64,000 nucleotides of DNA from Patescibacteria group bacterium (GTDB lineage: Bacteria > Patescibacteriota > Minisyncoccia > Phycocordibacterales > Phycocordibacteraceae): NCBI GenBank assembly GCA_018970465.1, contig JAGWWI010000001.1:3430-67429 (forward strand), in the 5' to 3' direction. The notes under the pieces were generated by a model, which saw only the letters and a program-made list of their open reading frames with translations, was not told the DNA's origin and ran no database searches. Positions within the stretch are counted from its first letter, which is position 1. Every line of letters starts with the position of its first letter. Shown in pieces: positions 11,549 through 24,029 of this stretch. The translations under genes were made by a program, and so were the position numbers.

Positions 11549-11779
11549 ATGATCGATCCCGAGCTCGCCGCTAAGCTCGACGAGATAGAGAAGGTCGCTC
11601 GCGCCGCCTACGAGGCGGCCGAGAAGGCGCGTAAATACCTCTTTTGGACCGGTGTCGCGACTATCGTCGTAATCGTCGTGCCGCTGATCGGCCTCGCGTT
11701 CGCGATTCCAGCATTCCTCACTAACTACGGCAATCCGCTCCAGCAGGAGACGAAGACCCTCAATTCGCTCGGCTACTAG
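11549..11779 (+). CDS. Small hypothetical membrane protein (76 aa).
   Basis: Amphipathic N-terminus plus one TM helix. The stop overlaps the dedA stop region. Confidence 0.45.
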   Translation: MIDPELAAKLDEIEKVARAAYEAAEKARKYLFWTGVATIVVIVVPLIGLAFAIPAFLTNYGNPLQQETKTLNSLGY

Positions 11780-12393
11780 AGCGCGCGGCGCCCGCGCACG
11801 ATATTGAGCGCGATAGGGAGGAACGAGACGACAATGATCCCGAGCGAGATCGGGAGTACGTAGTGCTGGATGCCCGGCACTGCCGTGCCGAGGAAGTAGC
11901 CCAAGGACACGACGCCCGCGCCCCAGATAATCCCCCCGAGCATGTTGTAGGAGAGGAATGTCGCGTAGCGCATCCGCGCGACGCCCGCCAAGACGGGCGC
12001 CAGGGTGCGCACGATCGGCACGAAGCGCGCGAGGAGCACGGCGCGCGGGCCGTACGTCGTATAGAAGCGCTCGGTGCGCTCCAAGTACTCGCGCTTGAAG
12101 AGGCGCGAGTCGGGCCGCTTGAAGAGCGCGCTGCCGACCCGCCGGCCGAACCAATAGCCGACCGTATCGCCGAGGATAGCGGCGAGCGCGACGACGGTCG
12201 CGAGCGGGAGATACCGCAAGAGCCCGCTCCCCGCGAGGAGGCCTGCAGCGAAGAGGAGCGAGTCGCCGGGGAGGAATATGCCGATCAGGAGCCCGCTCTC
12301 GGCGAAGACGAGGAGGGCGACGCCCGCGTATCCGCCCGCGCGCACGATCGCGAGGGGGTCCAAGTGCGCGCACGCGAGCAAGAAGTTCTCCAT
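11776..12393 (-). CDS. DedA/VTT-domain family membrane protein.
   Basis: The DedA core GLLIGIFLPGDSLLFAAG ... GRRVGSALFKRP ... RFVPIVRTLAPVLAG matches the family. Confidence 0.88.
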   Translation of the reverse strand: MENFLLACAHLDPLAIVRAGGYAGVALLVFAESGLLIGIFLPGDSLLFAAGLLAGSGLLRYLPLATVVALAAILGDTVGYWFGRRVGSALFKRPDSRLFKREYLERTERFYTTYGPRAVLLARFVPIVRTLAPVLAGVARMRYATFLSYNMLGGIIWGAGVVSLGYFLGTAVPGIQHYVLPISLGIIVVSFLPIALNIVRGRRAL

Positions 12394-12632: not shown

Positions 12633-15600
12633 GTGGGCGTCATTCTGCGCGGCATAAGCAGCGGCACCACCGGGCAACTGCGCATCGTCCCCAACGGTGG
12701 CGCATGGGCCGATAGCCAAGAAACGACCTATTTCCAAATCACCAACTCATCCAACAACAACGCGTCCTTCCAAGGGGGGACCTATGGCGCTGACACGCAG
12801 CTTAATCGGCTCCAATTCAATGCCTCATCGACGCAGGTTACTGACTACGCATTCGGCTCGACACCGGTCCCCAACTCGGTTTTCGGTGTCGTTTCCTCAA
12901 GTACCGTCAAGACGCTCTTCGCAGTGAAGAATACCGGCGGCTCGCCAAGCGGAGACTATCTGCAAATCTCTTCAAGCGCAGGCGCGGGCGACCTGCTTAA
13001 GGTCACGGGGGCAGGCCTCGTCGGCCTCGGCACCACCTCGCCCTCGACGACCCTCTCTGTCGGAGGAAGCGGATATATCACCGGCGGTCTTGGTGTCGGT
13101 GTCCTCAACACGGCTGCAGGAACCCTCACCACCTCAGGGAACGCGACGATCGGCGGCACGCTCGCGGCTGGCGCCGCCACCACCACCGATCTGGCGATTA
13201 CGCATCTCGCGAATGCGCTTCTTGCGGCGAACGCCGCAGGGTCCGTCGTCGCGACTACTTCGATAGGCGCCAATCTCCTGACAGGCTCTCTCGGTTCCAT
13301 CAACGGCAGCACATTCAACGCTGGTGCTTCGATCACCATCACCGCGGCCTCTTCCACGCTCCTCGCGAATAACAACACCTGGAGCGGCATCAACACGTTC
13401 ACAAACGCCTCTTCGAACTTCGCCGGCACCTGGCAGGGATACAGTCCGTCGGCCTTCGCCACCTTTAGCTATCCGTTCCCGGCGAACGCCACGACCACGC
13501 TTCTGAGCCTGAGCGGAGGGTTTACGGCGTATGCCTCCTCGACCATTGGTAAGGGAGGAGTCAATGGTCTTACTGTCAACGGGAACGCTACTACGACCGG
13601 CACCGCCTACTTTGGCGGGAATGTCGGAATCGCCTCGACCTCGCCGGAGTACCCGCTTTCGGTAGGGAACATTATCGGAATCGATGCGAGCGGAAACATC
13701 CACTTCGCGACGACCACGGAAATCAGTTATCCCGTAAGCCCGGGGAATTCGGCGCTTGATATCGTGGCGCAGAATGATACGTATCACGACAACCTCATCT
13801 CACTCGAAAACGACTCGATCCTTGCGAGCAACGGCCAGTGCGGCAATGATGCGCTCCGGTTCCGTGACAGCGTCGGGCATGTGGAGCGGGGCGCGATAGG
13901 GTATAGCAGCGTCAAGACCGGGTGCACGGCCGGATATAACCCAGACTATCTCTACGCCGAGATAGGGAATATCAACTCCGCAGATCCTGACGACACGAGC
14001 TTCGCCATCATCAACACGCACGGCCCGGGAGCGCTCAACCTTCCCGGGACCTCCTACAAAGTTCTCGACGTGCAGGGCAGCACGGGGAATTTGTCGCTCA
14101 ACGATACCAGCGGGAACTCGCACTTCTATCTCAACGCATCGAACGGTCATATCGGCATCGGAACGACGACGCCCGATGAGGCGCTCGTCGTGAACGACAC
14201 GATACAGGCCGGTAATACGACTCAGAACGGCAACCTCTACTTCGGCGGTTCCACCATCGCGCTCAAGTCGGCGTATTCGTCGAACATTCTAGCGATTTAT
14301 ACCGCCGGCAAAGAAGCCGCTCGATTCGACGGTAATGGGCGATTCGCGGTTGGGACCAGCTCGCCCTTCGCGCAACTTGCGGCATCCTCGACCTCCGTGT
14401 ACCCGACCTTTATTGCTGACCAGCATGGCTCGGCCCCGGTGGCTCTGTTCCTCGGCGGCAACGTCGGCATCGGCACCGCTTCTCCTAATACGAAACTGGA
14501 AGTGGATGGGAATGTAATCTTCAATCCGAACGCCATCGGAGGCGGCGGCCCCAACACCAACTCGGTTAACCTTATCGGCAATACGAATACAACCGCATTC
14601 CGTGCGACCTACAACAGCGTCGGCGCCCTCTTCTTGGGCCATAACTCCTCGAATGCCGTCATCGGTACCGATGGCACCGACCTGGCATTCCGAACCAACA
14701 TCGCGAGCGGCGACCTCACGAGCGGCTCCGAACTCATGCGCATCACCGCAAGCGGCAACGTCGGCATCGGGACGACGAGTCCGAGTTCGATGCTGACCGT
14801 GGGTACTGAAGGGACGACGCAAGCAATCTCCATCTCAGGCAATGCCGCGAGCCTATACACCGGTCGTCCGACCATAGATACCGCGCAGCTGAAGCTCGGT
14901 TCGGTCACTAGTTCGCAAGGCGGCGGCATCGAGTTCCAGGTGTCCTCGGCCAATAACGGCTACGGGTGGAAGATCGCCGCTCCCAACGTGACCAGCGGCA
15001 ACAGCAACCAGAGTCTGCTGTTCCTGGATCGCTCCAATTCTGCGACGTGGTCAGAAAAGATGAGGATCGACGAAAACGGCAACGTCGGCATCGGGACGAC
15101 GAGTCCGGGCTACCCGCTTGATGTTAAGGCGTCGGGCGCAATAGCGGCACGCCTATACGGCAATGCTGGCGCATCGAGCGACAACGTACAAGTGCGATTC
15201 GCGGGCCAAAAGGACGGAGAGTTGTGGGCGCTGGGATCGGATGTTACGGGAGGCGGATCAACGGGAGACTTTGAATTTTATAACTTAGGGAACGCGGGCG
15301 GGTCCATGGGTACGAAGCTGACCATTCTGGGGTCTGGCAACGTCGGTATCGGGACGACGAGTCCGGCCTACAAACTCACTGTCGACAACGCCGGATCGGC
15401 CGGCGGCGTTGCAGGCTTCGAGAATTCCTCGGGCGAGTGCGTCATAAATCCGACATCAAGCTCGATCAACTGCTCGTCCGACCAGCGGCTCAAGACCAAT
15501 TTCGTCTCCATCAGCACTACAACCGCCCTGGCCGATATCGAGGCGCTCTCCCCGACCTATTTCAACTGGAAAACGGAGGCCTCGGGCGCGCCGGAGCACG

Positions 15601-16106
15601 CGGGCTTCATCGCGCAGGAGGTGCAGCCGATCTTACCCGACCTTGTCTCGCAGGGCTCGAACGGCTACTACATGCTGGACTACACGGGCTTCGTGCCGTA
15701 CTTGACCGCGGGGATCCAGGCGCTCGCATACGAGATGCAGGGGCAAAGCGCCGATATAGCCCGTATACAGGGCCTTACGGGCCTCATGGCCACCACGACC
15801 CTCCCCGAGTCGCCCGCCTCGGGCGTCGCGGCCGAGTGCGTCGCGGGCGACACGAAGCTCCGCCGCCGGAGGAAGCGGGCGGACGGGAGCTACGCATACG
15901 ACGAGACCGACATCGCCGATATCGCGCCGGGCGACGAAGTCCTCTCGCTCGACGAGGCGACCGGCTGCGCGGTATACCGCCGCGTGAACGCGCTCCTGCC
16001 GCGCGGCGTGCAGGAGGTATACGAGCTCCGCACCAAGGGCGGCCGCGTGGTCCGAACCACCGCGAACCACCCATACCTTGTCCGCCTTTCCGATATAAGC
16101 GTATGA
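12633..16106 (+). CDS. Giant phage-tail-fibre-like protein: Gly/Thr/Ser-rich beta-helix with (G)NVGIGTTSP fibre repeats, a peptidase-S74 intramolecular-chaperone auto-processing domain, and an intein N-terminal (Hint) segment at the extreme C-terminus. The 5' end is uncertain: the track start is a GTG, and frame 0 is open and coding-like back to about 12394.
   Basis: The motif M/L-R-I-x-x-x-G-N-V-G-I-G-T-T-S-P recurs at least 5 times. S74 chaperone signatures are present: CSSDQRLKTN...HAGFIAQEVQPILPDLV...YMLDYTGFVPYLTAGIQALAYEM. Intein block A (CVAGDTKL) and block B (TANHPYLV) then follow. The stop overlaps the ATG of the next gene (ATGA). Confidence 0.85.
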   Translation: MGVILRGISSGTTGQLRIVPNGGAWADSQETTYFQITNSSNNNASFQGGTYGADTQLNRLQFNASSTQVTDYAFGSTPVPNSVFGVVSSSTVKTLFAVKNTGGSPSGDYLQISSSAGAGDLLKVTGAGLVGLGTTSPSTTLSVGGSGYITGGLGVGVLNTAAGTLTTSGNATIGGTLAAGAATTTDLAITHLANALLAANAAGSVVATTSIGANLLTGSLGSINGSTFNAGASITITAASSTLLANNNTWSGINTFTNASSNFAGTWQGYSPSAFATFSYPFPANATTTLLSLSGGFTAYASSTIGKGGVNGLTVNGNATTTGTAYFGGNVGIASTSPEYPLSVGNIIGIDASGNIHFATTTEISYPVSPGNSALDIVAQNDTYHDNLISLENDSILASNGQCGNDALRFRDSVGHVERGAIGYSSVKTGCTAGYNPDYLYAEIGNINSADPDDTSFAIINTHGPGALNLPGTSYKVLDVQGSTGNLSLNDTSGNSHFYLNASNGHIGIGTTTPDEALVVNDTIQAGNTTQNGNLYFGGSTIALKSAYSSNILAIYTAGKEAARFDGNGRFAVGTSSPFAQLAASSTSVYPTFIADQHGSAPVALFLGGNVGIGTASPNTKLEVDGNVIFNPNAIGGGGPNTNSVNLIGNTNTTAFRATYNSVGALFLGHNSSNAVIGTDGTDLAFRTNIASGDLTSGSELMRITASGNVGIGTTSPSSMLTVGTEGTTQAISISGNAASLYTGRPTIDTAQLKLGSVTSSQGGGIEFQVSSANNGYGWKIAAPNVTSGNSNQSLLFLDRSNSATWSEKMRIDENGNVGIGTTSPGYPLDVKASGAIAARLYGNAGASSDNVQVRFAGQKDGELWALGSDVTGGGSTGDFEFYNLGNAGGSMGTKLTILGSGNVGIGTTSPAYKLTVDNAGSAGGVAGFENSSGECVINPTSSSINCSSDQRLKTNFVSISTTTALADIEALSPTYFNWKTEASGAPEHAGFIAQEVQPILPDLVSQGSNGYYMLDYTGFVPYLTAGIQALAYEMQGQSADIARIQGLTGLMATTTLPESPASGVAAECVAGDTKLRRRRKRADGSYAYDETDIADIAPGDEVLSLDEATGCAVYRRVNALLPRGVQEVYELRTKGGRVVRTTANHPYLVRLSDISV
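15477..15800 (+). other. Peptidase S74 / intramolecular chaperone auto-processing domain (tail-fibre C-terminal chaperone), within the CDS.
   Basis: SDQRLK (containing the presumptive autocleavage Ser) ... GFIAQEV ... LDY ... L.AGIQAL. This is the classical endosialidase / tail-spike chaperone pattern. Confidence 0.75.
15837..16103 (+). other. Intein N-terminal splicing segment (Hint blocks A and B) at the C-terminus of the fibre protein.
   Basis: Cys1 codon at 15837 (…GVAAE|CVAGDTKL). Then ...GDEVLSLDEATG... and block B TTANHPYLV. The segment is about 89 aa and the ORF terminates right after it. Confidence 0.75.
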
Positions 16107-17425
16107 AACATACATTGACCGATGTAAAGAAGCGCGTCACTCCGAGGAATAAATCTGTCGCACAGGTGCGCGGGACGCGGGCGAAAAAGGCGGGAAGTCG
16201 TGAGATTCCAGAGCCGGGAATTCGTGATACGGCTCGCCGCATCGAATCGCGGCGAGCCGACATGTCCGCGCGGATCCGCTGCCCGTATTGCGGCTCCCCG
16301 GAATTCGTGAAGCGCGGCATCCGCAGGAAGAAGCATGAGGCCGTCCAGCTCTATCTCTGCCGCGCGGAGGCCTGCGGCCGCACCTTCACGAGCGAGCGCG
16401 TGAAGGGGAAGCGCTACCCCCTCCGGGTCATCATCGAAGGCATGAGCTACTACAATCTCGGCTGCACGCTCGAGGAGACCTGCCGGCTCTTGAAGAAAAA
16501 GTTCGCCGACGACGCGGGCGTGCTTGCGCCCACGCCCGAGACCCTCGCCGCGTGGGTAGAGCAGTACAAGCCGCTCTGCCGCTACGAGCGCATGCGCCCC
16601 TACGCGGTGAAGCTCTTGCGCCCCGCCGAGACGGTCGAGGTCGTGACCATGGCGCACCGCCAGCTCTATCGCTTCCGCTATCATCGCGCCAAGATGTTCC
16701 TCTCGCTCGAGGAGTTCGGCAACCGGCGCCTCGAACGGCTGAAGCAGTACCTCGACGCGGTGTCGAGCGAGACCCCGCACCAGTACTTCGACGAGGGCGC
16801 GCGCATGAGCGAGGTGAGGAGCCGGTTCGACGCGGCCGACATGATCGTGAAGGGGAAGCACAACTTCGCGAATGACCTCGCCGCGTTCGTCCTGCCCGCA
16901 GTCGAGCGCAACCTCGACCGCCACGAGGCGCTCCAGCGCTTCATGATCGCGAACGACAGCGTGACGGTGGCGACCGAGGTGCCGGTATATATCCGCCGCG
17001 AGGACGTCGAGCACCTCGAGAACGAGCTCAAGTTCAAGATCACGGACGACGGCCGCGTCTCGATGAAGGGGGACAAACAGCCGCGGCAGCTGCCGCAGCT
17101 CCTCACGGGCCATATCGACCTCGTGCAAGTGAGGAACGGCATGGTCCACATCCTCGACTACAAGCCCGGCGCTTCCAAAGAGCGGCCCGTCGAGCAGCTC
17201 ACTTGGTACGCGCTCGCACTCTCCCGGCTCACGGGGCTCCGGCTCTTCGAGTTCAAGTGCGCGTGGTTCGACGATCAGGATTACTACGAGTTCTATCCGC
17301 TCCATGTGGTCAAAAAGCTGCGCCCGGCTTCCGGGAAGAAGCCGCGGCGGCGCTATGTCCACTTCAGGGACGGCACGACGGCCGAGGTGCCGCGCGAGCA
17401 TGCCGCCAAGCCGGTTATCGTATGA
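16103..17425 (+). CDS. Zn-ribbon/HTH (IS1595/InsA-like N-domain) fused to a RecB/Cas4-like PD-(D/E)XK nuclease. A candidate free-standing homing endonuclease inside the split intein.
   Basis: N-terminus RCPYCGSPEFVKRG...YLCRAEACGRTFTSE (CxxC...CxxxxC) followed by an HTH-like YPLRVIIEGMSYYNLGCTLEET. C-terminal motifs are ATEVPVY (E), GHIDLVQVRNGMVHILDYKPG (motif II, D...D.K) and EQLTWYALAL (QxxxY). ATGA overlaps on both sides. Confidence 0.75.
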   Translation: MKHTLTDVKKRVTPRNKSVAQVRGTRAKKAGSREIPEPGIRDTARRIESRRADMSARIRCPYCGSPEFVKRGIRRKKHEAVQLYLCRAEACGRTFTSERVKGKRYPLRVIIEGMSYYNLGCTLEETCRLLKKKFADDAGVLAPTPETLAAWVEQYKPLCRYERMRPYAVKLLRPAETVEVVTMAHRQLYRFRYHRAKMFLSLEEFGNRRLERLKQYLDAVSSETPHQYFDEGARMSEVRSRFDAADMIVKGKHNFANDLAAFVLPAVERNLDRHEALQRFMIANDSVTVATEVPVYIRREDVEHLENELKFKITDDGRVSMKGDKQPRQLPQLLTGHIDLVQVRNGMVHILDYKPGASKERPVEQLTWYALALSRLTGLRLFEFKCAWFDDQDYYEFYPLHVVKKLRPASGKKPRRRYVHFRDGTTAEVPREHAAKPVIV

Positions 17426-17901
17426 TTATGAATTACTACAAGTCCAAGTATGAGCGGCGGCAGTTCGCGCCGAAGAAGCCGGTGAAGACCTTCCGCGACC
17501 TCGATATCTACCAGAAGACGCTCGAGTGCGCGGTCATCGTGATGAAGAACGTGCGCCCGAAGCTGGCTGCGCTCAAGTATCCGTTCCTGGACGGCATGAC
17601 CGATTGCGCCATGAACGTACCGCTTGCGATAGGCGAGGCGCATTCGATCCGCTTCGCGGACTTCGCGAAGGGACTCGGCCACCTGGAGCGCGCCATGAGC
17701 GGCTGCAACAAGATGATCATCTACCTCGAGCATGCGAAGGGGATGCACGGCGCGAAGGCCGATCCCGACAGCATCATCGACGAGCTCGTCGTGCGGTATG
17801 CCGAGAGCCGTACGAAGAGCTTCCGGCTCGAGCAGTCGTGGAAGAAGTGGCGGCAGGCGGACGCCGCGCTTCCCGCCGCTGCCCGCGCCCCGCGCCTATG
17901 A
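17422..17901 (+). CDS. Four-helix-bundle protein (TIGR02436-like; 23S rRNA intervening-sequence protein / DGR Avd family).
   Basis: The sequence FRDLDIYQKTLECAVIV...NVPLAIGEAHS...GLGHLERAMSGCNKMIIYLEHAKGM fits the FRDL..WQKA / NIAEG / GS..E four-helix pattern. About 160 aa, with ATGA overlaps on both sides. Confidence 0.75.
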   Translation: MIMNYYKSKYERRQFAPKKPVKTFRDLDIYQKTLECAVIVMKNVRPKLAALKYPFLDGMTDCAMNVPLAIGEAHSIRFADFAKGLGHLERAMSGCNKMIIYLEHAKGMHGAKADPDSIIDELVVRYAESRTKSFRLEQSWKKWRQADAALPAAARAPRL

Positions 17902-18149
17902 ACATGACCATGCCGCTCAAAAACCTTTCCGGAGATCGCGCGCGCTGGCGCAAGGTATCCGAGCTCGCGCCGGGCATGCTACTTGCCGTCGCCGCTGACG
18001 AGGTCCTCGCGCGCGCGACGGACGGCGTTGAGGACGCCGTGCTCTGGGACGACATCGTCTCGATCGCGTCGGTCGGGCGCGAGGAGGTGTTCGACATTGA
18101 GGTCGCCGGCACGCGCAACTTCGTCGGCAACGGCATCTACGCCCACAAC
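17898..18149 (+). other. Intein C-terminal splicing segment (blocks F and G), within the CDS.
   Basis: Block F VFDIEVAGTRNF, block G NGIYAHN, and a +1 Thr nucleophile. Confidence 0.7.
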
Positions 18150-19292
18150 ACGTATCTGCCGTCCGCCACCACGCTGCTCACGGTGGGCGGCGCGGCGGTG
18201 GACGCGGCCGCGTACATCGTCCCGGATGAGCCGGTCGTCGTCGAGTCCGGTGATGCGACGACGACCTTGAGTGCGCCGTCCGATGCGCTCGCGCCGGGCG
18301 GCGGCGTCGACCTCTATACGCTCGGACTCCACGACCTGGCGGCAGTCAACGCGCTCGCCGCCGAGGTCGACGCCAATGCCTCCACCACCGCTGCTCAGGG
18401 TACGAGTATCGCTACGCTCCGGTCCTCCCTCGCCGCCCTCCAGGGCGTGAACCTCGACCTCGCGGCCGTCGCGTCCTCCACCCTCGACATCGCGAGCACG
18501 ACAACGCCCTTGGACGCCGCGCAGGCGTTCGCGCAAGGGTTCTTCGGGAGCCTCTTTGCGCATATCACGAGCTGGCTCGCGAATAGCGGGAATGGGATAG
18601 GCAACCTCTTCGCCGCCGTGATCCACACAAACGAGCTCTGCGTCAAGGACGCGGCGGGCGCGGACGTCTGCATCACGGGCGACCAGCTCGCCGCGGCGGT
18701 CTCGGGCGCGGGCGCCGCCGCGCTCCCCGGCGTCACGACCGCCGACACGACCGTCACGAGCCAGAGCTCGACTGGCGCCGCGAGCACCGCCTCCTCCACC
18801 CCCTCCACCTCCACCGACGTCACTCCCCCCGTCGTCACCCTCCTCGGCTCCGCAGCGATGAACATCACCCAGGGCGCCGCCTTCACCGACCCTGGTGCGA
18901 CCGCTACAGACGACACCGACGGCGACCTGACCGCCAAGATCGTCGTCTCGGGCGCCGTCGACCCCGCAACCCCCGGCCTCTACACCCTCACCTACTCAGC
19001 GACCGACGCCGCCGGCAATACCGGCACCGCCTCCCGCGTGGTCACCGTCACCGCTGCAGGCTCCTCCACCCCAGACACCACCGCCTCCTCCACGCCTTCT
19101 GCAAGCACGAGCGGATCCGTCGCCTCCTCCAACACCGCCCCGGCCGACACCTCGACCGCTCCTCCGACGACGAGCACCACTGATACGACGACCGCACCCA
19201 CCCCGACCTCCGCAACCACCGATACCACTACGACGAGTGCAGCGGCGACGACCGATACCACCGCGAGCGCCCCGGCCGCAAGCGGCAATTAA
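17898..19292 (+). CDS. Protein beginning with an intein C-terminal splicing segment (blocks F and G, ...GIYAHN|T). It is followed by an extein with a bacterial Ig-like (DUF5011/Big-like) domain and a Thr/Ser/Pro-rich tail.
   Basis: N-terminus ...VLWDDIVSIASVGREEVFDIEVAGTRNFVGNGIYAHN then T(+1)YLPS.... Downstream, PPVVTLLGSAAMNITQGAAFTDPGATATDDTDGDLTAKIVVSGAVDPATPGLYTLTYSATDAAGNTGTASRVVTV is an Ig-like domain pattern. The gene is in the same frame as the fibre gene. The start is an internal ATG of track ORF 17526..19292. Confidence 0.8.
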   Translation: MNMTMPLKNLSGDRARWRKVSELAPGMLLAVAADEVLARATDGVEDAVLWDDIVSIASVGREEVFDIEVAGTRNFVGNGIYAHNTYLPSATTLLTVGGAAVDAAAYIVPDEPVVVESGDATTTLSAPSDALAPGGGVDLYTLGLHDLAAVNALAAEVDANASTTAAQGTSIATLRSSLAALQGVNLDLAAVASSTLDIASTTTPLDAAQAFAQGFFGSLFAHITSWLANSGNGIGNLFAAVIHTNELCVKDAAGADVCITGDQLAAAVSGAGAAALPGVTTADTTVTSQSSTGAASTASSTPSTSTDVTPPVVTLLGSAAMNITQGAAFTDPGATATDDTDGDLTAKIVVSGAVDPATPGLYTLTYSATDAAGNTGTASRVVTVTAAGSSTPDTTASSTPSASTSGSVASSNTAPADTSTAPPTTSTTDTTTAPTPTSATTDTTTTSAAATTDTTASAPAASGN

Positions 19293-19573: not shown

Positions 19574-20116
19574 ATGCTTAGCCGGTACGACATACGAGGC
19601 AGGGTGGGCGTTTTTATCGACGCGGCGAATATTTTTTACTCGCAGCGCACGCTCGGGTGGCGTATCGACTTTGGCAGGCTCGCCGGGTATCTGAAAGGGG
19701 AGATCGATATAAAGGGCATGTACTATTACACCGGCAAAGTCGGCGCGCTCGCAAAGCAAGTATCCTTTCTCCAGAAGCTGCAATCTCTCGGCTACGAGGT
19801 AACTGCGAAAGAGGTGAAGTTCATAAAAACCGGCGGCGGTGCCCAGATCCCCAAGGGCAATCTTGATGTGGAACTCGCGCTCGATGCCTTCAGGCTCAAA
19901 GAGAATTTCGACGTATTTTTGCTGTTCTCGGGTGATTCAGACTTCGCGTATCTCATCGACCTTCTGAAACAGGCAGGGAAGCGCGTGTTCGTCCTCTCGA
20001 CGCGCGGCCATGTCTCGAAGGAACTGCTTGATCGCGCGAAGTATATAGATCTGCGGCGGCTCAGGGCCTTCGCGGAAAAGATCAAGGGGCCGGACGAGCC
20101 GGCCCCTGAGGTCTGA
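19574..20116 (+). CDS. NYN-domain (LabA/DUF88-like) putative RNase.
   Basis: GVFIDAANIFYS (N-terminal Asp), DVELALDAF, and LLFSGDSDFAYLIDLLKQAGKRVFV: the NYN/PIN-like acidic residues in the canonical order. Confidence 0.75.
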   Translation: MLSRYDIRGRVGVFIDAANIFYSQRTLGWRIDFGRLAGYLKGEIDIKGMYYYTGKVGALAKQVSFLQKLQSLGYEVTAKEVKFIKTGGGAQIPKGNLDVELALDAFRLKENFDVFLLFSGDSDFAYLIDLLKQAGKRVFVLSTRGHVSKELLDRAKYIDLRRLRAFAEKIKGPDEPAPEV

Positions 20117-20130
20117 CACAGCCACTATAT

Positions 20131-20586
20131 ATGACCCATTCTAAACGTCAAGTGAATAGCGGCCGGCTCGTGAGGCAGAGCCTCGCGGCGAAGCGTTTCT
20201 CCCTTTTTCTCCCTTTCTTCCTCTTCCTCCCGCTGCTCCCCCTTTCTACCCTTTTCCTTTTCCCCGCCGAAGCGCACGCCTCCGCCTTCACCCGCCCGCC
20301 GAACAATTTGGGCCTCGTCGGCTACTGGAATTTCGACGAAGGCTCGGGCACCGTCGCGCACGACCGCTCGGGGCAGGGCAACAACGGCACGCTCGTCAAT
20401 GCGCCGACGTGGGTGAAAGGGAAGGTGAACGGGGCGCTGTCGTTCAATGGGACGAATCAGTGTGTCGATGCGGGCAATGCCTCGTCGCTCAATGTGAGCG
20501 CCGCCACCGGCATGGCAGCCTGCGCTTGGTTATATCTGAATTCATACAGCTCCAGTACAGCTCTACAAGCTCGGGCATTGATATGA
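20131..20586 (+). pseudogene. Truncated LamG/ConA-like surface-protein gene. It keeps the N-terminal signal/TM and the first about 60% of one LamG domain, and is disrupted downstream by an AT-rich insertion carrying hicBA.
   Basis: It starts MTHSKRQVNSG..., like the intact paralog at 21840. It then reads AHASAFTRPPNNLGLVGYWNFDEGSG...ALSFNGTNQ, diverging at ...LNSY into an AT-rich sequence and a stop. The 5' DNA is nearly identical to the start of the 21840 gene. Confidence 0.6.
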
Positions 20587-20639
20587 GAAAAGTGGAAAGT
20601 AAGAAGTATAAAGAAGAAAGTATGGAGAAAAAAGAATCG

Positions 20640-20843
20640 CTACAAATCCCTCGACGAGAGTCCGCTCTGTTTCAAAATCGATCGCAGCGTGCTCTCGGGC
20701 AGATCTCCCGTGTGCATCGGGACGGTGACGCGCCGCTTGTCGTGCTCCCGATAGTAGATGCGGTGACTGCCTTTTTGCCTTTGGAATATGTATCCTTCCC
20801 GCTCAAGCGCGCGGCACAAAGTGCGGGCCGAAACGCCGGCCAT
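20640..20843 (-). CDS. hicA: HicA-family mRNA interferase toxin (type II TA).
   Basis: The 67-aa product LCRALEREGYIFQRQKGSHRIYYREHDKRRVTVPMHTGDLPESTLRSILKQSGL matches the YcfA/HicA consensus (GSH..., tvPhH...l..gtlrsIlkq). Confidence 0.8.
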   Translation of the reverse strand: MAGVSARTLCRALEREGYIFQRQKGSHRIYYREHDKRRVTVPMHTGDLPESTLRSILKQSGLSSRDL

Positions 20844-20846
20844 ATA

Positions 20847-21080
20847 CTATCGGGCAATTCCCACCTCGATGCTTCCCAGGAGCGTCGTGTCGGCTTCGGG
20901 CGCTTTTTCACCCGCTGCCTCCATGTCTTCCAAATACAGTTCGATCGCCTCGCGCGCCATCGCGCGCGCCTCGTTCATGTCGGCGCCGTAGGTGACGCAG
21001 CCAGGAAGCGCAGGCACCGTAACGGTGTACCCGCCTTGCGGATCGGATTCGAAGACAAGCTGGAAGGTCTGTTTGGTCAT
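20847..21080 (-). CDS. hicB: HicB-family antitoxin (UPF0150 fold).
   Basis: The 77-aa product FQLVFESDPQGGYTVTVPALPGCVTYGADMNEARAMAREAIELYLEDM matches the HicB N-terminal domain pattern (y.v.ie...gGy.a.vP.LpGc.t.G.t.eEa...EAi). It lies immediately upstream of hicA. Confidence 0.75.
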   Translation of the reverse strand: MTKQTFQLVFESDPQGGYTVTVPALPGCVTYGADMNEARAMAREAIELYLEDMEAAGEKAPEADTTLLGSIEVGIAR

Positions 21081-21116
21081 GGCAGCAGTATAGCAAATCG
21101 TGAGGCAGTAGAAAGT

Positions 21117-21371
21117 ATGAAGTATAAAGGGCTCAAGAGAGCGCTGCTTTGCGCGTCTCCCTTTATGCTTGCTACCTTATTCTTGCTTCCTCCGCTCGCG
21201 CACGCGAGCGTCCTCACCCGCCCGGCCAACAATTTGGGCCTCGTGGGGTACTGGCAATTCAACGAAGGCTCGGGCTCGCTCGCGCACGACACCTCTGGTG
21301 CTGGCAACACGGGTACGCTCGTCGGTTCGCCGAGCTGGGTGGCGGGGAAGGTGGGCGGAGCGATAGTATGA
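21117..21371 (+). pseudogene. N-terminal fragment of a LamG-repeat surface protein (signal peptide plus about 55 aa of LamG domain), truncated where the mazF-like gene begins.
   Basis: The product MKYKGLKRALLCASPFMLATLFLLPPLAHASVLTRPANNLGLVGYWQFNEGSGSLAHDTSGAGNTGTLVGSPSWVAGKVGGAIV reaches a stop 1 nt before the MazF-like ATG. Confidence 0.55.
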
Positions 21372-21372
21372 C

Positions 21373-21816
21373 ATGAGTATGCGAAAAGATTTCGATACAT
21401 GGAATGGAGAGAAGAAGCGCATCAACGAGCACGACACGGGCGCACTCTATTTCTACGAGCGTGAGATCTGGTGGTGTTCTCTTGGAGTGAACGTGGGCTT
21501 CGAGCAGGATGGGACGAATGAGCTATTCCAGCGCCCTGTCGTGATACTGAAAAAGTACAATCCGCAGATTTTTCTCGCTCTGCCGCTCTCGACGACATCC
21601 AAGCGCGGAAGCTATTATTGGCCGGTGGGCATCGTGGACGGTGAACAAGCCGTCGCGATACTCTCGCAGTTGCGCCTTTTGGATTCTAAACGACTGACGA
21701 ATCGCATCGGCATACTCGGCAAAAAGGAATTCGATCTTCTCGTCGGGGAAACCGTCGCCGCGAATTTCCCCACCTTAAAAAGTTCTCCCCCGCCGGGAGG
21801 CGGGGGCAAGCCGTGA
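21373..21816 (+). CDS. MazF/PemK/Kid-family toxin-like endoribonuclease with no adjacent antitoxin.
   Basis: The sequence EREIWWCSLGVNVGFEQDGTNELFQRPVVIL...LALPLSTTSKRG...AVAILSQLRLLDSKRLTNRIGIL aligns with the Kid/PemK blocks GEIW.v.l....G.EQ.G.RPvlIv / vP.Ts / R..D..R. Lower GC than the flanks. Confidence 0.7.
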   Translation: MSMRKDFDTWNGEKKRINEHDTGALYFYEREIWWCSLGVNVGFEQDGTNELFQRPVVILKKYNPQIFLALPLSTTSKRGSYYWPVGIVDGEQAVAILSQLRLLDSKRLTNRIGILGKKEFDLLVGETVAANFPTLKSSPPPGGGGKP

Positions 21817-21839
21817 GGCCGTTTGTGACTAGAGTATAT

Positions 21840-24029
21840 ATGACCCATTCTGAACGTCAAGTGAATAGCGGAAAAATCACGAGGCTAAGCCTCCTGAAAC
21901 ACCTCTTTCCCCCCGTTCTTCTCGTTGCCGCCCTTTTCTTGCTGCCTGCTTCGGCGCACGCGAGCGTCCTCACCCGCCCCGCCAACAATCTCGGCCTCGT
22001 CGGCTACTGGCAGTTCAACGAAGGCTCGGGCTCGCTCGCGCATGATGTTTCGGGTAACGGTGTTGCCGGCGTAGTCGTCAATGGCCCCGCCACCTGGACG
22101 ACGGGGAAGTTTGGCAGCGCGCTGTTACTAAGCTCGGCATCCAATCAACAGGTGCAGGCAACCTCGACTAAGGCCGTTCAATTTTCTACGACGCAGTGCG
22201 CGTGGATAAAACTCAATTCATACAATGGCGGCAATTTCGCCGGAGTGGCAGGCACCGGCGCGGGCGGAACAATCCTCACGACAAGATCATCGAATGCGAC
22301 ATTCGGCGCGTCGATACAAATCGCAAATTTTCACTTGTCGGCAAACAAAGCGGTGTTTATCTACAATACAGCCGGCACTGCGGTGGGCGCGGCGGGTAAC
22401 ACGACCATCGCCCTCAATACGTGGTATTTCATATGCGGTACATTTTCATACACCGGCGGCGGCGGAAACTTCGACGGCAATTGGCAAGTCTATGTGAATG
22501 GAGTCGAAGACGATTCGAGCGCGAATAATTACCTTGCGGCTGGCGGCAATCCCAGTTTCCCCATGAACGGCACCACCTGGAACATAGCCGGTATAGATGG
22601 CGCGATCGACGACGTCCGCATCTACAACCGCGCGCTATCGGCGGCGGACGTCCTGAAGCTCTACCAGCTCGGCACGACGCAAGTGAAGGCGACCCTCGGC
22701 ACCGCGCCCATCGTCCTCACCCCCACCGCCGGCATCGGCAGCGGGCTCGTGGGGTACTGGCCATTCAACGAAGGAACGGGCAACACCACCGCCGACATTT
22801 CCGGCAACAAGAACACCGGTACGCTCGTCAATGCGCCGAGCTGGGTGAAGGGGAAGTATGGGAATGCGCTGTCGTTCAATGGGACGAATTATATTTCTCT
22901 GGGAAATGTAGCGGCACTCAGTTTCCCGAGCACCGACTTCGGCATATGCGCATGGGCCTACCCGATCGAGAACAGCAATTACAGGGAGATAGTCAACAAG
23001 GGAGATAGCGGATCTGCCAGCGGTTCGCAGTATGAAGTACTTTTGGATAACTCGGGGAAGTACGCGTTTAATGTCATGGTGGGAGGTGTTGTTGATCGGC
23101 TGGCCGATACAGCGACCGCTTCTTTAAATAAGTGGGCTTACGTATGCGGTGTTCGCCAAGGGGCGCTCAATTCGCTTTATGTAAACGGTATTTTAAGGAA
23201 TTCGGCATCTTTTAGCGGACCGCTGAACACCACATCGAACGGTGTGAGTATAGGAGCCGCGGGCAACGGAAACACAAGCCTTGCTTTTAGGGGCACCATC
23301 GACGAAGTGCGCATCTACAACAGAGCACTTTCATCAAGCGAAGTGAAGCAGCTCTATCTCGACGAGAGCGTGCAGATCGGGCACAGCAACGCGGTCGTCT
23401 CGAACGGCCTCGTGGGCTGGTGGACCATGGACGGCAATAATTTGATCCAGAACGTGAAGGATTCGAGCGGGCAGGGGAATAACGGCTCCCTCGTCGGCTT
23501 CTCCGCCACCTCCTCGGCCGAAGTCGCGGGCAAAATCGGCGGGGCTTTGAAGTTTAATGGGACGAGTCAGTATATTACTGTCCCAGACACCACCGCGTTG
23601 CGGCTGTCGGGTAATTATTCTGTATCGGTTTGGATCAGGCCCGCAGCTCTAAAAGACTACGGAAACGTGCTTTTTAAAGAATCCCTAATAAGCAATACGG
23701 GCTATGGTCTCATCACCTTCGCAAACGGCTCGTGGGGATGGCAGATCGGCAATACGCTAGATATACAAACCTCCGCCGCGTTGCTAAAGAATACTACCTG
23801 GTCTCTTCTCATCGCGACGTATGACGGAACCAACGTACGTCTCTACCAGAACGGATCGCTCCTTTCGACCACCGTGGCTTCGGCAGTGGCGAGCGATGCG
23901 ACGGCTCTCGCCCTCGGCGCTGATACTGGCGACGGGAGATATTTTAACGGCACTATCGACGACGTCCGCGTCTACAACCGCGCCCTTTCGGCGAGCGAGA
24001 TCCAGGCGCTCTATGCGGCGGGGAGGTAA
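21840..24029 (+). CDS. Secreted surface protein with three LamG/ConA-like (Laminin_G_3-type) domains.
   Basis: Signal peptide ...LLPASAHA|SV. Three repeats run from GLVGYW.FNEG.G....D.SGN.N.G.L...P.W..GK.G.AL.FNG to ...IDDVRIYNRALSAAEV/SSEV..LY. The start is an ATG 27 nt inside track ORF 21813..24029, so that it does not overlap the mazF-like stop. Confidence 0.85.
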   Translation: MTHSERQVNSGKITRLSLLKHLFPPVLLVAALFLLPASAHASVLTRPANNLGLVGYWQFNEGSGSLAHDVSGNGVAGVVVNGPATWTTGKFGSALLLSSASNQQVQATSTKAVQFSTTQCAWIKLNSYNGGNFAGVAGTGAGGTILTTRSSNATFGASIQIANFHLSANKAVFIYNTAGTAVGAAGNTTIALNTWYFICGTFSYTGGGGNFDGNWQVYVNGVEDDSSANNYLAAGGNPSFPMNGTTWNIAGIDGAIDDVRIYNRALSAADVLKLYQLGTTQVKATLGTAPIVLTPTAGIGSGLVGYWPFNEGTGNTTADISGNKNTGTLVNAPSWVKGKYGNALSFNGTNYISLGNVAALSFPSTDFGICAWAYPIENSNYREIVNKGDSGSASGSQYEVLLDNSGKYAFNVMVGGVVDRLADTATASLNKWAYVCGVRQGALNSLYVNGILRNSASFSGPLNTTSNGVSIGAAGNGNTSLAFRGTIDEVRIYNRALSSSEVKQLYLDESVQIGHSNAVVSNGLVGWWTMDGNNLIQNVKDSSGQGNNGSLVGFSATSSAEVAGKIGGALKFNGTSQYITVPDTTALRLSGNYSVSVWIRPAALKDYGNVLFKESLISNTGYGLITFANGSWGWQIGNTLDIQTSAALLKNTTWSLLIATYDGTNVRLYQNGSLLSTTVASAVASDATALALGADTGDGRYFNGTIDDVRVYNRALSASEIQALYAAGR

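Follow-up and report, generated by a model that had tools for sequence, protein, structure and literature searches.

A fibre gene of a Patescibacteria bacterium probably fractured within an intein by a nuclease and four-helix-bundle cassette

The locus at positions 12633 to 19292 of the analysed stretch (the window, 64,000 nucleotides of contig JAGWWI010000001.1 of an ultrasmall bacterium of the Patescibacteria group) raises the question of how a fibre-like gene that stops within an intein, and is separated from the rest of that intein by a nuclease gene and a gene for a four-helix-bundle (4HB) protein, could still give rise to one protein. It appears likely, with a probability of roughly 0.72, that this is a fractured giant surface-fibre gene of the Candidate Phyla Radiation (CPR), in which a class-1 intein was cut between block B and the N4 strand by a homing-type nuclease/4HB cassette and in which the two intein halves trans-splice. 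The ORF list and the sequence revealed four co-oriented open reading frames (ORFs) on the plus strand, at 12633-16106, 16103-17425, 17422-17901 and 17898-19292, designated here as genes 1 to 4. The features of the locus are the following.

12633..16106, plus strand: gene 1, N-extein (Gly-rich fibre protein with GNVGIGTTSP repeats and an S74 chaperone domain) and intein N-half (ORF list, Pfam, upstream translation)
15477..15647, plus strand: Peptidase_S74 intramolecular-chaperone domain, residues 949-1005, with SDQRLK Ser/Lys motif (Pfam, 58.4 bits)
15837..16103, plus strand: intein N-half, 89 aa, with Cys1 (15837-15839), Arg-rich loop, block B TTANHPYLV (16056-16082) and a 7-aa tail
16103..17425, plus strand: gene 2, Zn-ribbon/PD-(D/E)XK nuclease, alternative start at 16262 (Pfam, NCBIfam, alignment A1, PADLOC, PHROG)
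17422..17901, plus strand: gene 3, 159-aa 4HB protein, related by predicted fold to the 23S-rRNA intervening-sequence (IVS, "S23")/diversity-generating retroelement (DGR) Avd family (AlphaFold2, Foldseek)
17898..18149, plus strand: intein C-half, 84 aa, with leader MNMTMPLKNLSGDRA, N4 strand RWRKVSELAPGMLLAV, a linker at the canonical endonuclease site and blocks F and G (TIGR01443)
18150..19292, plus strand: C-extein, 380 aa, with +1 Thr (18150-18152), linker, Bact_surface_Ig-like domain (18837-19049) and Thr/Ser/Pro-rich tail (Pfam PF16403, 86 bits)
19574..20116, plus strand: NYN-domain gene, probably associated with the locus (Pfam NYN, 91.6 bits; positions in relatives)

Intein halves, exteins and the position of the break

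In gene 1 the N-extein ends in GVAAE and is followed by CVAGDTKL, the Cys codon lying at 15837-15839, and later by TTANHPYLV (16056-16082). Gene 4 reads NFVGNGIYAHN directly before TYLPS, with the terminal Asn encoded at 18147-18149 and the Thr at 18150-18152. The catalytic set in the window is complete (C1, TTANH, HN and +1 T). The joined halves matched the Pfam model Intein_splicing (PF14890) with 60.1 bits (cut-off 35.8); unbroken relatives of this intein family obtained 53-69 bits on the same model, and DnaB mini-inteins from the Protein Data Bank (PDB) matched the joined halves at E=1.8e-12. The C-half was recognised by NCBIfam TIGR01443 (27.8 bits, cut-off 15.6), and the N-half alone was slightly under the threshold of TIGR01445 (22.5 vs 24.5).

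The splicing residues were counted in roughly 80-100 copies of the family from other genomes. Cys1 was present in 93 of 93 copies, the terminal His-Asn in 78 of 78 and the +1 Thr in 76 of 78; the remaining two are probably artefacts of the pattern. The TxxH of block B was found by pattern in 103 of 106 copies; two of the three misses still hold TxxH and the third is an artefact of the extent of the hidden Markov model match. The +2 residue was Tyr in 65 of 78 copies. Moreover, a strongly basic and then acidic loop directly after block A in the window (15837-15900, residues CVAGDTKLRRRRKRADGSYAYDE) is kept family-wide as L-R-R-R-R-K-R followed by a D/E-rich stretch of variable length, and the C-halves share a conserved leader motif, ..LKK.RGD..W. 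Judged from its sequence, the window element is a genuine class-1 intein divided between two ORFs. The conservation of the splicing residues across copies disfavours both decay and a reading of the halves as bacterial intein-like (BIL) or pre-toxin Hint domains. The original prediction, made from the letters and the ORF list, had proposed a split intein with free-standing nuclease and 4HB genes between its halves and had named profile searches as a check; it was borne out by the PF14890, TIGR01443 and DnaB matches and by the predicted fold of the gene 3 product, the intein-splicing and Peptidase_S74 models scoring above their thresholds except for TIGR01445 on the N-half alone. Its ORFs, coordinates, motifs, stop/start overlaps and shared frame of genes 1 and 4 were found as it had given them (ORF list, sequence), and we agree that a fibre-like structural protein is an unusual host for an intein.

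Alignment to a DnaB mini-intein and to unbroken relatives placed the break past block B and ahead of the N4 strand; the canonical endonuclease site lies about 20 residues downstream of it. Block B runs straight into N4 in the unbroken relatives, which read, for example, TTANHPYLTKQGWQKVANLDQGVEIAV (P0254) and HPYLTESGWRKVVELAPGDRIAVP (L100; relatives are given by their L and P numbers). In the window, block B (ending in HPYLV) is followed by the 7-aa tail and the TGA stop of gene 1 at 16104-16106, 7 codons past block B; the C-half begins with a leader of 15 aa, which is followed by the N4 strand (RWRKVSELAPGMLLAV). The usual place of the endonuclease domain, the variable linker, sits farther on, inside the C-half. 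The halves have 89 and 84 aa because the break precedes N4; the halves of published fractured genes measure 88-105 and 33-54 aa (Dassa et al., 2009, PMC2677866). All nested endonuclease domains have been placed at one conserved site after N4, "C35", a restriction that was called puzzling, and exceptions were predicted if free-standing nucleases invade randomly (Beyer et al., 2019, PMC6801210). In the present family the stretch between block B and N4 receives the cassette and most of the in-frame domains of the relatives (NYN, DUF3800 and others). The original prediction had assumed that free ORFs replaced an in-frame homing-endonuclease domain, which does not agree with a break off the canonical site. 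The unusual break position concerns the form of the locus and is no argument against the mechanism.

The Peptidase_S74 domain of gene 1 (residues 949-1005, 58.4 bits, cut-off 22) carries the SDQRLK Ser...Lys autocleavage motif, and its cleavage is predicted; the intein begins about 60 residues past this domain. In S74 chaperone domains autocleavage releases the C-terminal fragment. A virtual spliced product, consisting of the last 230 aa of the N-extein and the C-extein, was collinear with single ORFs of the intein-less loci L004, L036, L006, L053, L045 and L035, and single high-scoring segment pairs crossed the splice junction for L004 and L036. A single ORF encodes S74 domain, linker, Ig-like domain and Thr/Ser/Pro-rich tail in the intein-less L006, L024, L036 and L004. 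Because the exteins align collinearly with single proteins of intein-less relatives, the predicted spliced product has the ordinary architecture of the family, and the two exteins are, by this comparison, parts of one normal protein. The uninterrupted homologues for which the original prediction had suggested a search were thus found, and its view of the spliced product as biologically odd could not be upheld.

Two or more kinds of extein site were distinguished, one after the S74 domain as in the window and one before a GNxGIGT repeat. In L089, L109, L132, L137 and L169 the S74 domain lies on the C-extein itself, and rejoining would therefore be needed there for the chaperone to act on the fibre. 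The C-terminal tail is wholly absent in some relatives (L022, L078). Imperfect splicing should cost little at the window site because only the fragment released by S74 would be affected and some relatives are tail-less, and this low cost may explain why a fractured intein is tolerated here. A sub-threshold Rfam match to weev_FSE at 18303-18374 (27 bits vs 40, both strands) marks a palindromic stretch in the coding region of the C-extein and is probably due to chance.

Consecutive ORFs are joined by ATGA stop/start overlaps at 16103, 17422 and 17898, read directly from the sequence. Each overlap shifts the frame by -1, and the three shifts bring gene 4 back into the frame of gene 1 (12633 and 17898 are each divisible by 3). 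This return had been taken as a sign of replacement. Among 41 fractured relatives, whose ORFs were stop-to-stop translations with code 11, the N- and C-halves shared a frame in 11, one third being expected by chance; the common frame of genes 1 and 4 is chance and not a meaningful signal. Moreover, the relatives fuse the nuclease to the N-half alone and always keep the 4HB gene separate. Within the four genes neither a plus-strand terminator-like site nor an internal promoter-like site was detected, which suggests that they are co-transcribed. The N-terminus of gene 2 is covered by alignments of homologues (P0002, 100% query coverage), and the ATGA-overlapped start of gene 4 is also present in L009. 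The frame of gene 1 is open upstream to 12180 (150 codons before the listed start), with fibre-like sequence from about 12400, and the upstream translation contained no ATG, GTG or TTG in this frame between 12180 and 12633. Either the start codon of gene 1 is a rare one or the gene has lost its 5' part next to the divergent VTT/DedA gene (11776-12393), and its 5' end is uncertain. A tblastn search of the 64-kb window gave no second copy of any of the four proteins.

The nuclease/4HB cassette and its states in related genomes

The gene 2 product contains an IS1/IS1595-type Zn ribbon (residues 60-97, 16280-16393; NCBIfam NF050000, 30.9 bits, cut-off 28) and a PD-(D/E)XK core (residues 305-376, 17015-17230; Pfam PDDEXK_1, PF12705, 25.4 bits, cut-off 22). 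D339, D352 and K354 are invariant in the nuclease alignment A1, as are about 150 residues in the nuclease alignment overall. The closest labelled profiles were a PADLOC Cas4-like nuclease (E=3e-5) and the PHROG exonuclease phrog_69 (E=2e-5). On this sequence evidence the protein is assigned to the PD-(D/E)XK nuclease superfamily (Cas4/RecB-like, PF12705). A profile search against PDB sequences returned no solved relative of the nuclease, only Zn-ribbon noise. More than 2,300 close homologues were found at 60-75% identity, and 1,938 representatives at the 50% clustering level. The family is large and, among the matches seen, confined to the CPR; a record identical to the window protein is deposited as Patescibacteria. 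More distant relatives bear generic labels ("transposase-like protein", "PD-(D/E)XK nuclease superfamily", "RpoP") that are uninformative on function. A phage origin of the cassette was considered and rejected on the ground that the viral collections IMG/VR and INPHARED held no nuclease relative. The nuclease family is new to inteins.

The AlphaFold2 (AF2) model of the gene 3 product (mean predicted local distance difference test, pLDDT, 84.4) shows four long helices. Its best Foldseek match was 2RLD_B (TMt 0.87, root-mean-square deviation 1.9 A, probability 1.0, E-value only 8e-3), followed by 2GSC and then by the DGR Avd structures 8UB7/4DWL. The protein had no significant sequence match in Pfam (none at E<0.1), NCBIfam, PHROG, PADLOC or PDB, and PF05635 (23S_rRNA_IVP) was weakly matched by 6 of 21 homologues (best E=5e-4). 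Given this predicted structure and these few homologues, the gene 3 product is structurally related, according to the model, to the PF05635/Avd four-helix-bundle family and is not filed as a member of it. The 4HB gene directly follows the nuclease gene in nearly all loci and is always a separate ORF. A second 4HB gene, a clear PF05635 member, was observed after an S74 gene in L089 (7130-7717, Zambryskibacteria); this locus also has a nuclease/4HB cassette, with a Bro-N gene between N-half and nuclease.

Related loci were collected with exact peptide patterns, on which the matches depend, and 80 loci were kept per scan; groundwater metagenomes of the Hainich and Rifle type were their source. 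The nuclease pattern gave 126 confirmed places among 185,579 species genomes, a pattern-limited lower bound that is still sporadic, and about 20 of the 80 nuclease-centred genome loci had the fractured-intein layout. The intein-centred metagenome scan gave at least 457 confirmed matches, and about 26 of its 80 loci were complete fractured loci, with more partial ones. Over both scans about 45 complete fractured loci, and more partial ones, were obtained. The states of the 80 intein-centred loci were as follows, the counts being approximate owing to the many short contigs.

Unbroken intein, no recognised inserted domain: about 21 loci
Unbroken intein with in-frame NYN domain: about 11 loci
Fractured, free-standing nuclease and 4HB genes (window layout): about 17 complete, about 12 partial loci
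Fractured, nuclease fused in frame to the N-half: about 9 loci

Over both scans the nuclease was fused in frame in about 14 loci, and only to the N-half. DUF3800 and an LPD3-like segment were found as other in-frame inserts. Among the nuclease-centred loci whose contig reaches upstream, most have the nuclease/4HB pair within a giant gene of the fibre type or immediately 3' of it, on the same strand. In most nuclease-centred loci the pair was found directly 3' of intact, intein-less fibre genes, so that the tie between cassette and intein assumed in the original prediction is not a fixed one.

Several relatives carry more than one intein of this family per giant fibre gene (L127, L133, L101, L138, L152 and L159). 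In L127 (3357-13190) one ORF contains four inteins, and in each of them an unclassified in-frame insert of ~190-255 aa separates block B from N4. Single ORFs consisting of an intein C-half, a short (30-150 aa) fibre-repeat extein and an intein N-half, here called middle pieces, were observed in P0241, P0242, P0244 and L126 (1258-2439); they imply fibre genes broken into at least three parts by two split inteins of one family. The same arrangement, IntC-extein-IntN, is used artificially for cyclisation or polymerisation. L088 has four IntN/IntC pairs spread over many small ORFs and no cassette; it is perhaps a degraded locus, or else a single gene with several inteins whose lineage decodes TGA as sense, the translation here having used code 11. 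In L103 (4135-6180) the C-extein ORF continues in frame into a second nuclease copy, followed by a second 4HB gene, which could reflect duplication of the cassette in tandem or an error of assembly.

Among 12 complete fractured loci, the identity between loci was 62-67% for intein, nuclease and 4HB protein compared to 19-37% for the exteins. The divergence of the nuclease correlated closely with that of the 4HB protein (Spearman rho 0.95) and weakly with that of the intein (0.29). In a neighbour-joining tree, intein-embedded and non-intein nucleases were interleaved in at least four clades, and two cassette copies in one genome occur. From these sequence comparisons the cassette is considered to evolve as one unit, with repeated changes of context.

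In the window clade, the N-half ORF ends in GTA TGA AA, followed by a conserved, partly palindromic stretch TTGACAaTGTCAA (L001, L023). The pattern after the stop reads GTA TGA AAn nnT TTn TTGACAaTGTCAA AnT TTT C and includes a TTGACA hexamer; it was found in L001 (4301-4340), L023, L016, L091, L097 and others, and its counterpart in the window, at 16107-16130, is degenerate. This stretch could be the N-terminus of the first cassette ORF, a promoter/operator or a nuclease site. The C-half gene starts 0-20 nt from the 4HB stop in the window clade, and junction geometry differs among the relatives, with gaps, an extra NYN gene or TAA stops.

The NYN gene is located in relatives between the intein N-half and the nuclease (L001, L009, L021, L023), just after the C-extein gene, or in frame inside inteins. 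The free-standing NYN gene looks like a third, movable member of the cassette. In-frame NYN domains (PIN-like, LabA-type) occur in inteins without a classical homing endonuclease (L004:216-1271, L034:1025-2299, L096:8001-9113, L100, L152, P0259, P0326 and P0304). They lie before N4 in L004 and at the canonical site in L096, L100 and L152; the assumption that NYN always occupies the cassette site was dropped, as it was found both before N4 (L004) and after it (L096, L100, L152). In P0304 the host is an SMC-like ATPase, and the intein lies in its P-loop (Walker A), a classic site for inteins. The literature search returned no paper that joins inteins with NYN domains, which is not proof that none exists.

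The genes near the locus are cellular (VTT/DedA, dienelactone hydrolase, HicAB, a PemK-like gene and LamG giants). The region 20131-24029 encodes the N-terminus of a giant LamG protein (Laminin_G_3) three times, at 20131-20586, at about 21140-21371 and in the full gene, which begins at 21813. A HicA/HicB pair on the minus strand (20640-21080) and a PemK-like gene (21373-21816) alternate with these copies. The 5' end of the LamG gene looks as if it had been repeatedly disrupted or duplicated by toxin-antitoxin insertions. The GC content is 0.54-0.59 across 19-27 kb and about 0.65-0.70 elsewhere in the window.

Weight of the possible explanations

According to the fractured-gene explanation, the four genes would be co-transcribed and translationally coupled, and the products of genes 1 and 4 would meet through the intein halves and trans-splice to give a protein with S74 domain, linker, Ig-like domain and tail. 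The nuclease/4HB pair would be a homing-endonuclease-type selfish element aimed at fibre-gene DNA, and a gene would tolerate it internally only where its protein can be rejoined by an intein. Several points weigh against this explanation. The association of the gene 1 and gene 4 products via the intein halves, and their trans-splicing, are something we infer from the sequence. The charges of the halves (N-half about +1 to +2, C-half about -5 to -6) are equal in split and unbroken members, and charge complementarity as an adaptation to the split state was rejected on this ground. The ATGA overlaps are real in the DNA but putative, and unproven, as start codons; the NCBI gene calls for a second assembly of the same organism (GCA_028866105.1) start at 16262 (gene 2), 17428 (gene 3) and 17910 (gene 4). 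The AF2 model of the nuclease, made from a 17-sequence alignment, was too poor for use (pLDDT 47.7). The homing part in particular is weakened by the lack of nuclease relatives in IMG/VR and INPHARED, by the fact that neither a filled/empty allele pair among close relatives nor a target site was found, and by a conservation that is unusual for a selfish endonuclease (about 150 invariant residues). Finally, we know of no precedent among homing endonucleases for a constant 4HB partner.

In a rival explanation, nuclease and 4HB protein would form a module that serves the host and is tied in function to giant fibre genes, for instance through repeat recombination/variation or regulation; the position in the intein would then be incidental and the split-intein reading unaffected. 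The very high conservation of the nuclease, its lack of relatives in the viral collections searched, the location of the pair within or 3' to a giant gene of the fibre type, with an intein or without, in most loci that reach upstream, and the structural closeness of the 4HB protein to the Avd/IVS proteins, which include a component of a diversity-generating system, are consistent with such a role. We nevertheless regard it as unlikely, since the pair is sporadic (126 places as a lower bound), is nested in or fused in frame to inteins in the manner of homing endonucleases, has switched context repeatedly across the tree and can occur in two copies per genome; moreover, no reverse transcriptase or template repeat was noticed nearby, no search having been aimed at either. 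Alternatively, a mobile cassette may have destroyed the intein and left genes 1 and 4 as unjoined remnants of a fibre that could still fold, the S74 domain lying upstream of the break. This would agree with the fact that only the released C-terminal fragment is affected here, with the missing tail of L022 and L078 and with the lack of a described natural split intein broken at this position. It is very improbable in view of about 45 diverged loci in which halves and exteins alike remain intact as ORFs and every splicing residue is kept, of intein halves better conserved than the exteins, of C-exteins elsewhere that carry S74 and must be rejoined, and of the leader motif ..LKK.RGD..W conserved in the C-halves.

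That the halves act like BIL or pre-toxin HINT domains, which would cleave or release segments of a surface protein and ligate no exteins, is suggested by the fast-evolving surface host, by an insertion in a poorly conserved linker as for BIL domains, and by a PT-HINT score slightly under threshold on the joined sequence (26.2 vs 27.7 bits). We give this reading very little credence, as Intein_splicing was the best-scoring model and above its threshold, C1, TxxH, terminal HN and +1 Thr are essentially invariant, the exteins rebuild a protein that is contiguous in relatives, and the same family sits in the P-loop of the SMC-like ATPase of P0304. An intron or three programmed -1 frameshifts might join the four ORFs into one precursor with a cis-splicing intein, for which the three ATGA overlaps speak, each of -1 and together restoring the gene 1 frame in gene 4. 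An Rfam E-value scan of 15500-18500, however, gave two sub-threshold matches only, both outside the junctions, and no slippery heptamer was seen at the junctions when the sequence was read directly; the junction geometry of the relatives is variable and their same-frame rate (11/41) at chance level, so that joining at the RNA or translation level is scarcely conceivable. A whole-window Rfam scan at the gathering thresholds found tRNA only.

Beyond trans-splicing of a single broken gene, the middle pieces and the multi-intein genes (L127, with up to four) would allow fibre segments to be ligated in trans in variable order and number, the split inteins serving as a modular assembly system and the nuclease/Avd-like pair driving module exchange at the DNA level. 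We consider this extension improbable; if true, it would give these organisms, which spend their lives attached to host cells, surface fibres that vary. Giant CPR surface proteins are plausible candidates for host attachment, and the very conserved nuclease/Avd-like pair marks their giant surface-fibre genes. The natural exceptions to the single nested-endonuclease site (cassette, in-frame nuclease fusion and other domains between block B and N4) make the steric explanation of that site testable. For protein engineering, the family is an abundant and diverse source of naturally split inteins; their break point is new, each half has about 85 aa, and natural three-piece ligation may be possible.

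Comparison with known systems

Free-standing homing endonuclease genes beside their target gene are known as "intronless homing" from the seg and mob genes of phage T4. The cassette resembles them in that it abuts one gene family in intein-less loci; here, in contrast, the hosts are cellular, the cassette has two genes and its cleavage activity is putative. With the S23 and DGR Avd proteins the locus shares the predicted fold of gene 3, which superposes on 2RLD, 2GSC and then Avd; it differs in that gene 3 has no significant sequence match and is partnered with a PD-(D/E)XK nuclease instead of a reverse transcriptase or an rRNA insertion. Like BIL and pre-toxin HINT domains, the Hint domain lies at a poorly conserved site of a variable secreted or surface protein, whereas here the full intein residue set with a +1 nucleophile is present and the exteins match contiguous homologues.

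The natural split inteins (cyanobacterial DnaE, gp41-1) and the atypically split ones (the Terminase intein of Dassa et al., 2009) likewise consist of two separately translated halves with a class-1 catalytic set, for which trans-splicing is expected. The break described here is neither at the canonical site nor at the early atypical one after N1, the halves are adjacent and co-oriented and not dispersed, and some relatives encode IntC-extein-IntN pieces (P0241, P0242, P0244, L126). Canonical inteins with LAGLIDADG or HNH endonucleases also nest the nuclease in the Hint fold, and about 14 relatives of the present locus translate nuclease and N-terminal splicing region in one frame; the canonical insertion at C35 after N4 (PMC6801210) is replaced here by one between block B and N4, and the nuclease is of another type.

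The closest agreement was with the fractured genes (Dassa et al., 2009, PMC2677866), in which the nuclease gene overlaps the start of the downstream gene and the nuclease family also occurs as a stand-alone insert without an intein, both as in the loci described here. In the model proposed for them the invading element brings stop and start codons (PMC2677866), and the conserved stop/start junction motifs found here fit such an element-supplied pair. The differences concern the host, here a non-enzymatic, fast-evolving CPR surface fibre and there DNA synthesis and repair enzymes, mainly of phage; the nuclease, here a Zn ribbon with a Cas4/RecB-like PD-(D/E)XK core and there Vsr-like in about half of the loci; the second, nearly constant 4HB gene; and the halves, here of 89 and 84 aa with the break before N4, compared to C-parts of 33-54 aa. 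Moreover, relatives of the present locus include fusions of nuclease and N-half, and no viral copies were found in IMG/VR or INPHARED. The searchable literature contained no description of inteins in CPR fibre proteins or of this arrangement, which is not proof that there is none. Fractured genes are in this way extended from phage DNA enzymes to cellular structural proteins: the locus is a member of the "fractured gene" kind, and it departs from the published cases in host class, type of organism and nuclease family, in having a constant second gene, in where the break lies and in the variety of related states.

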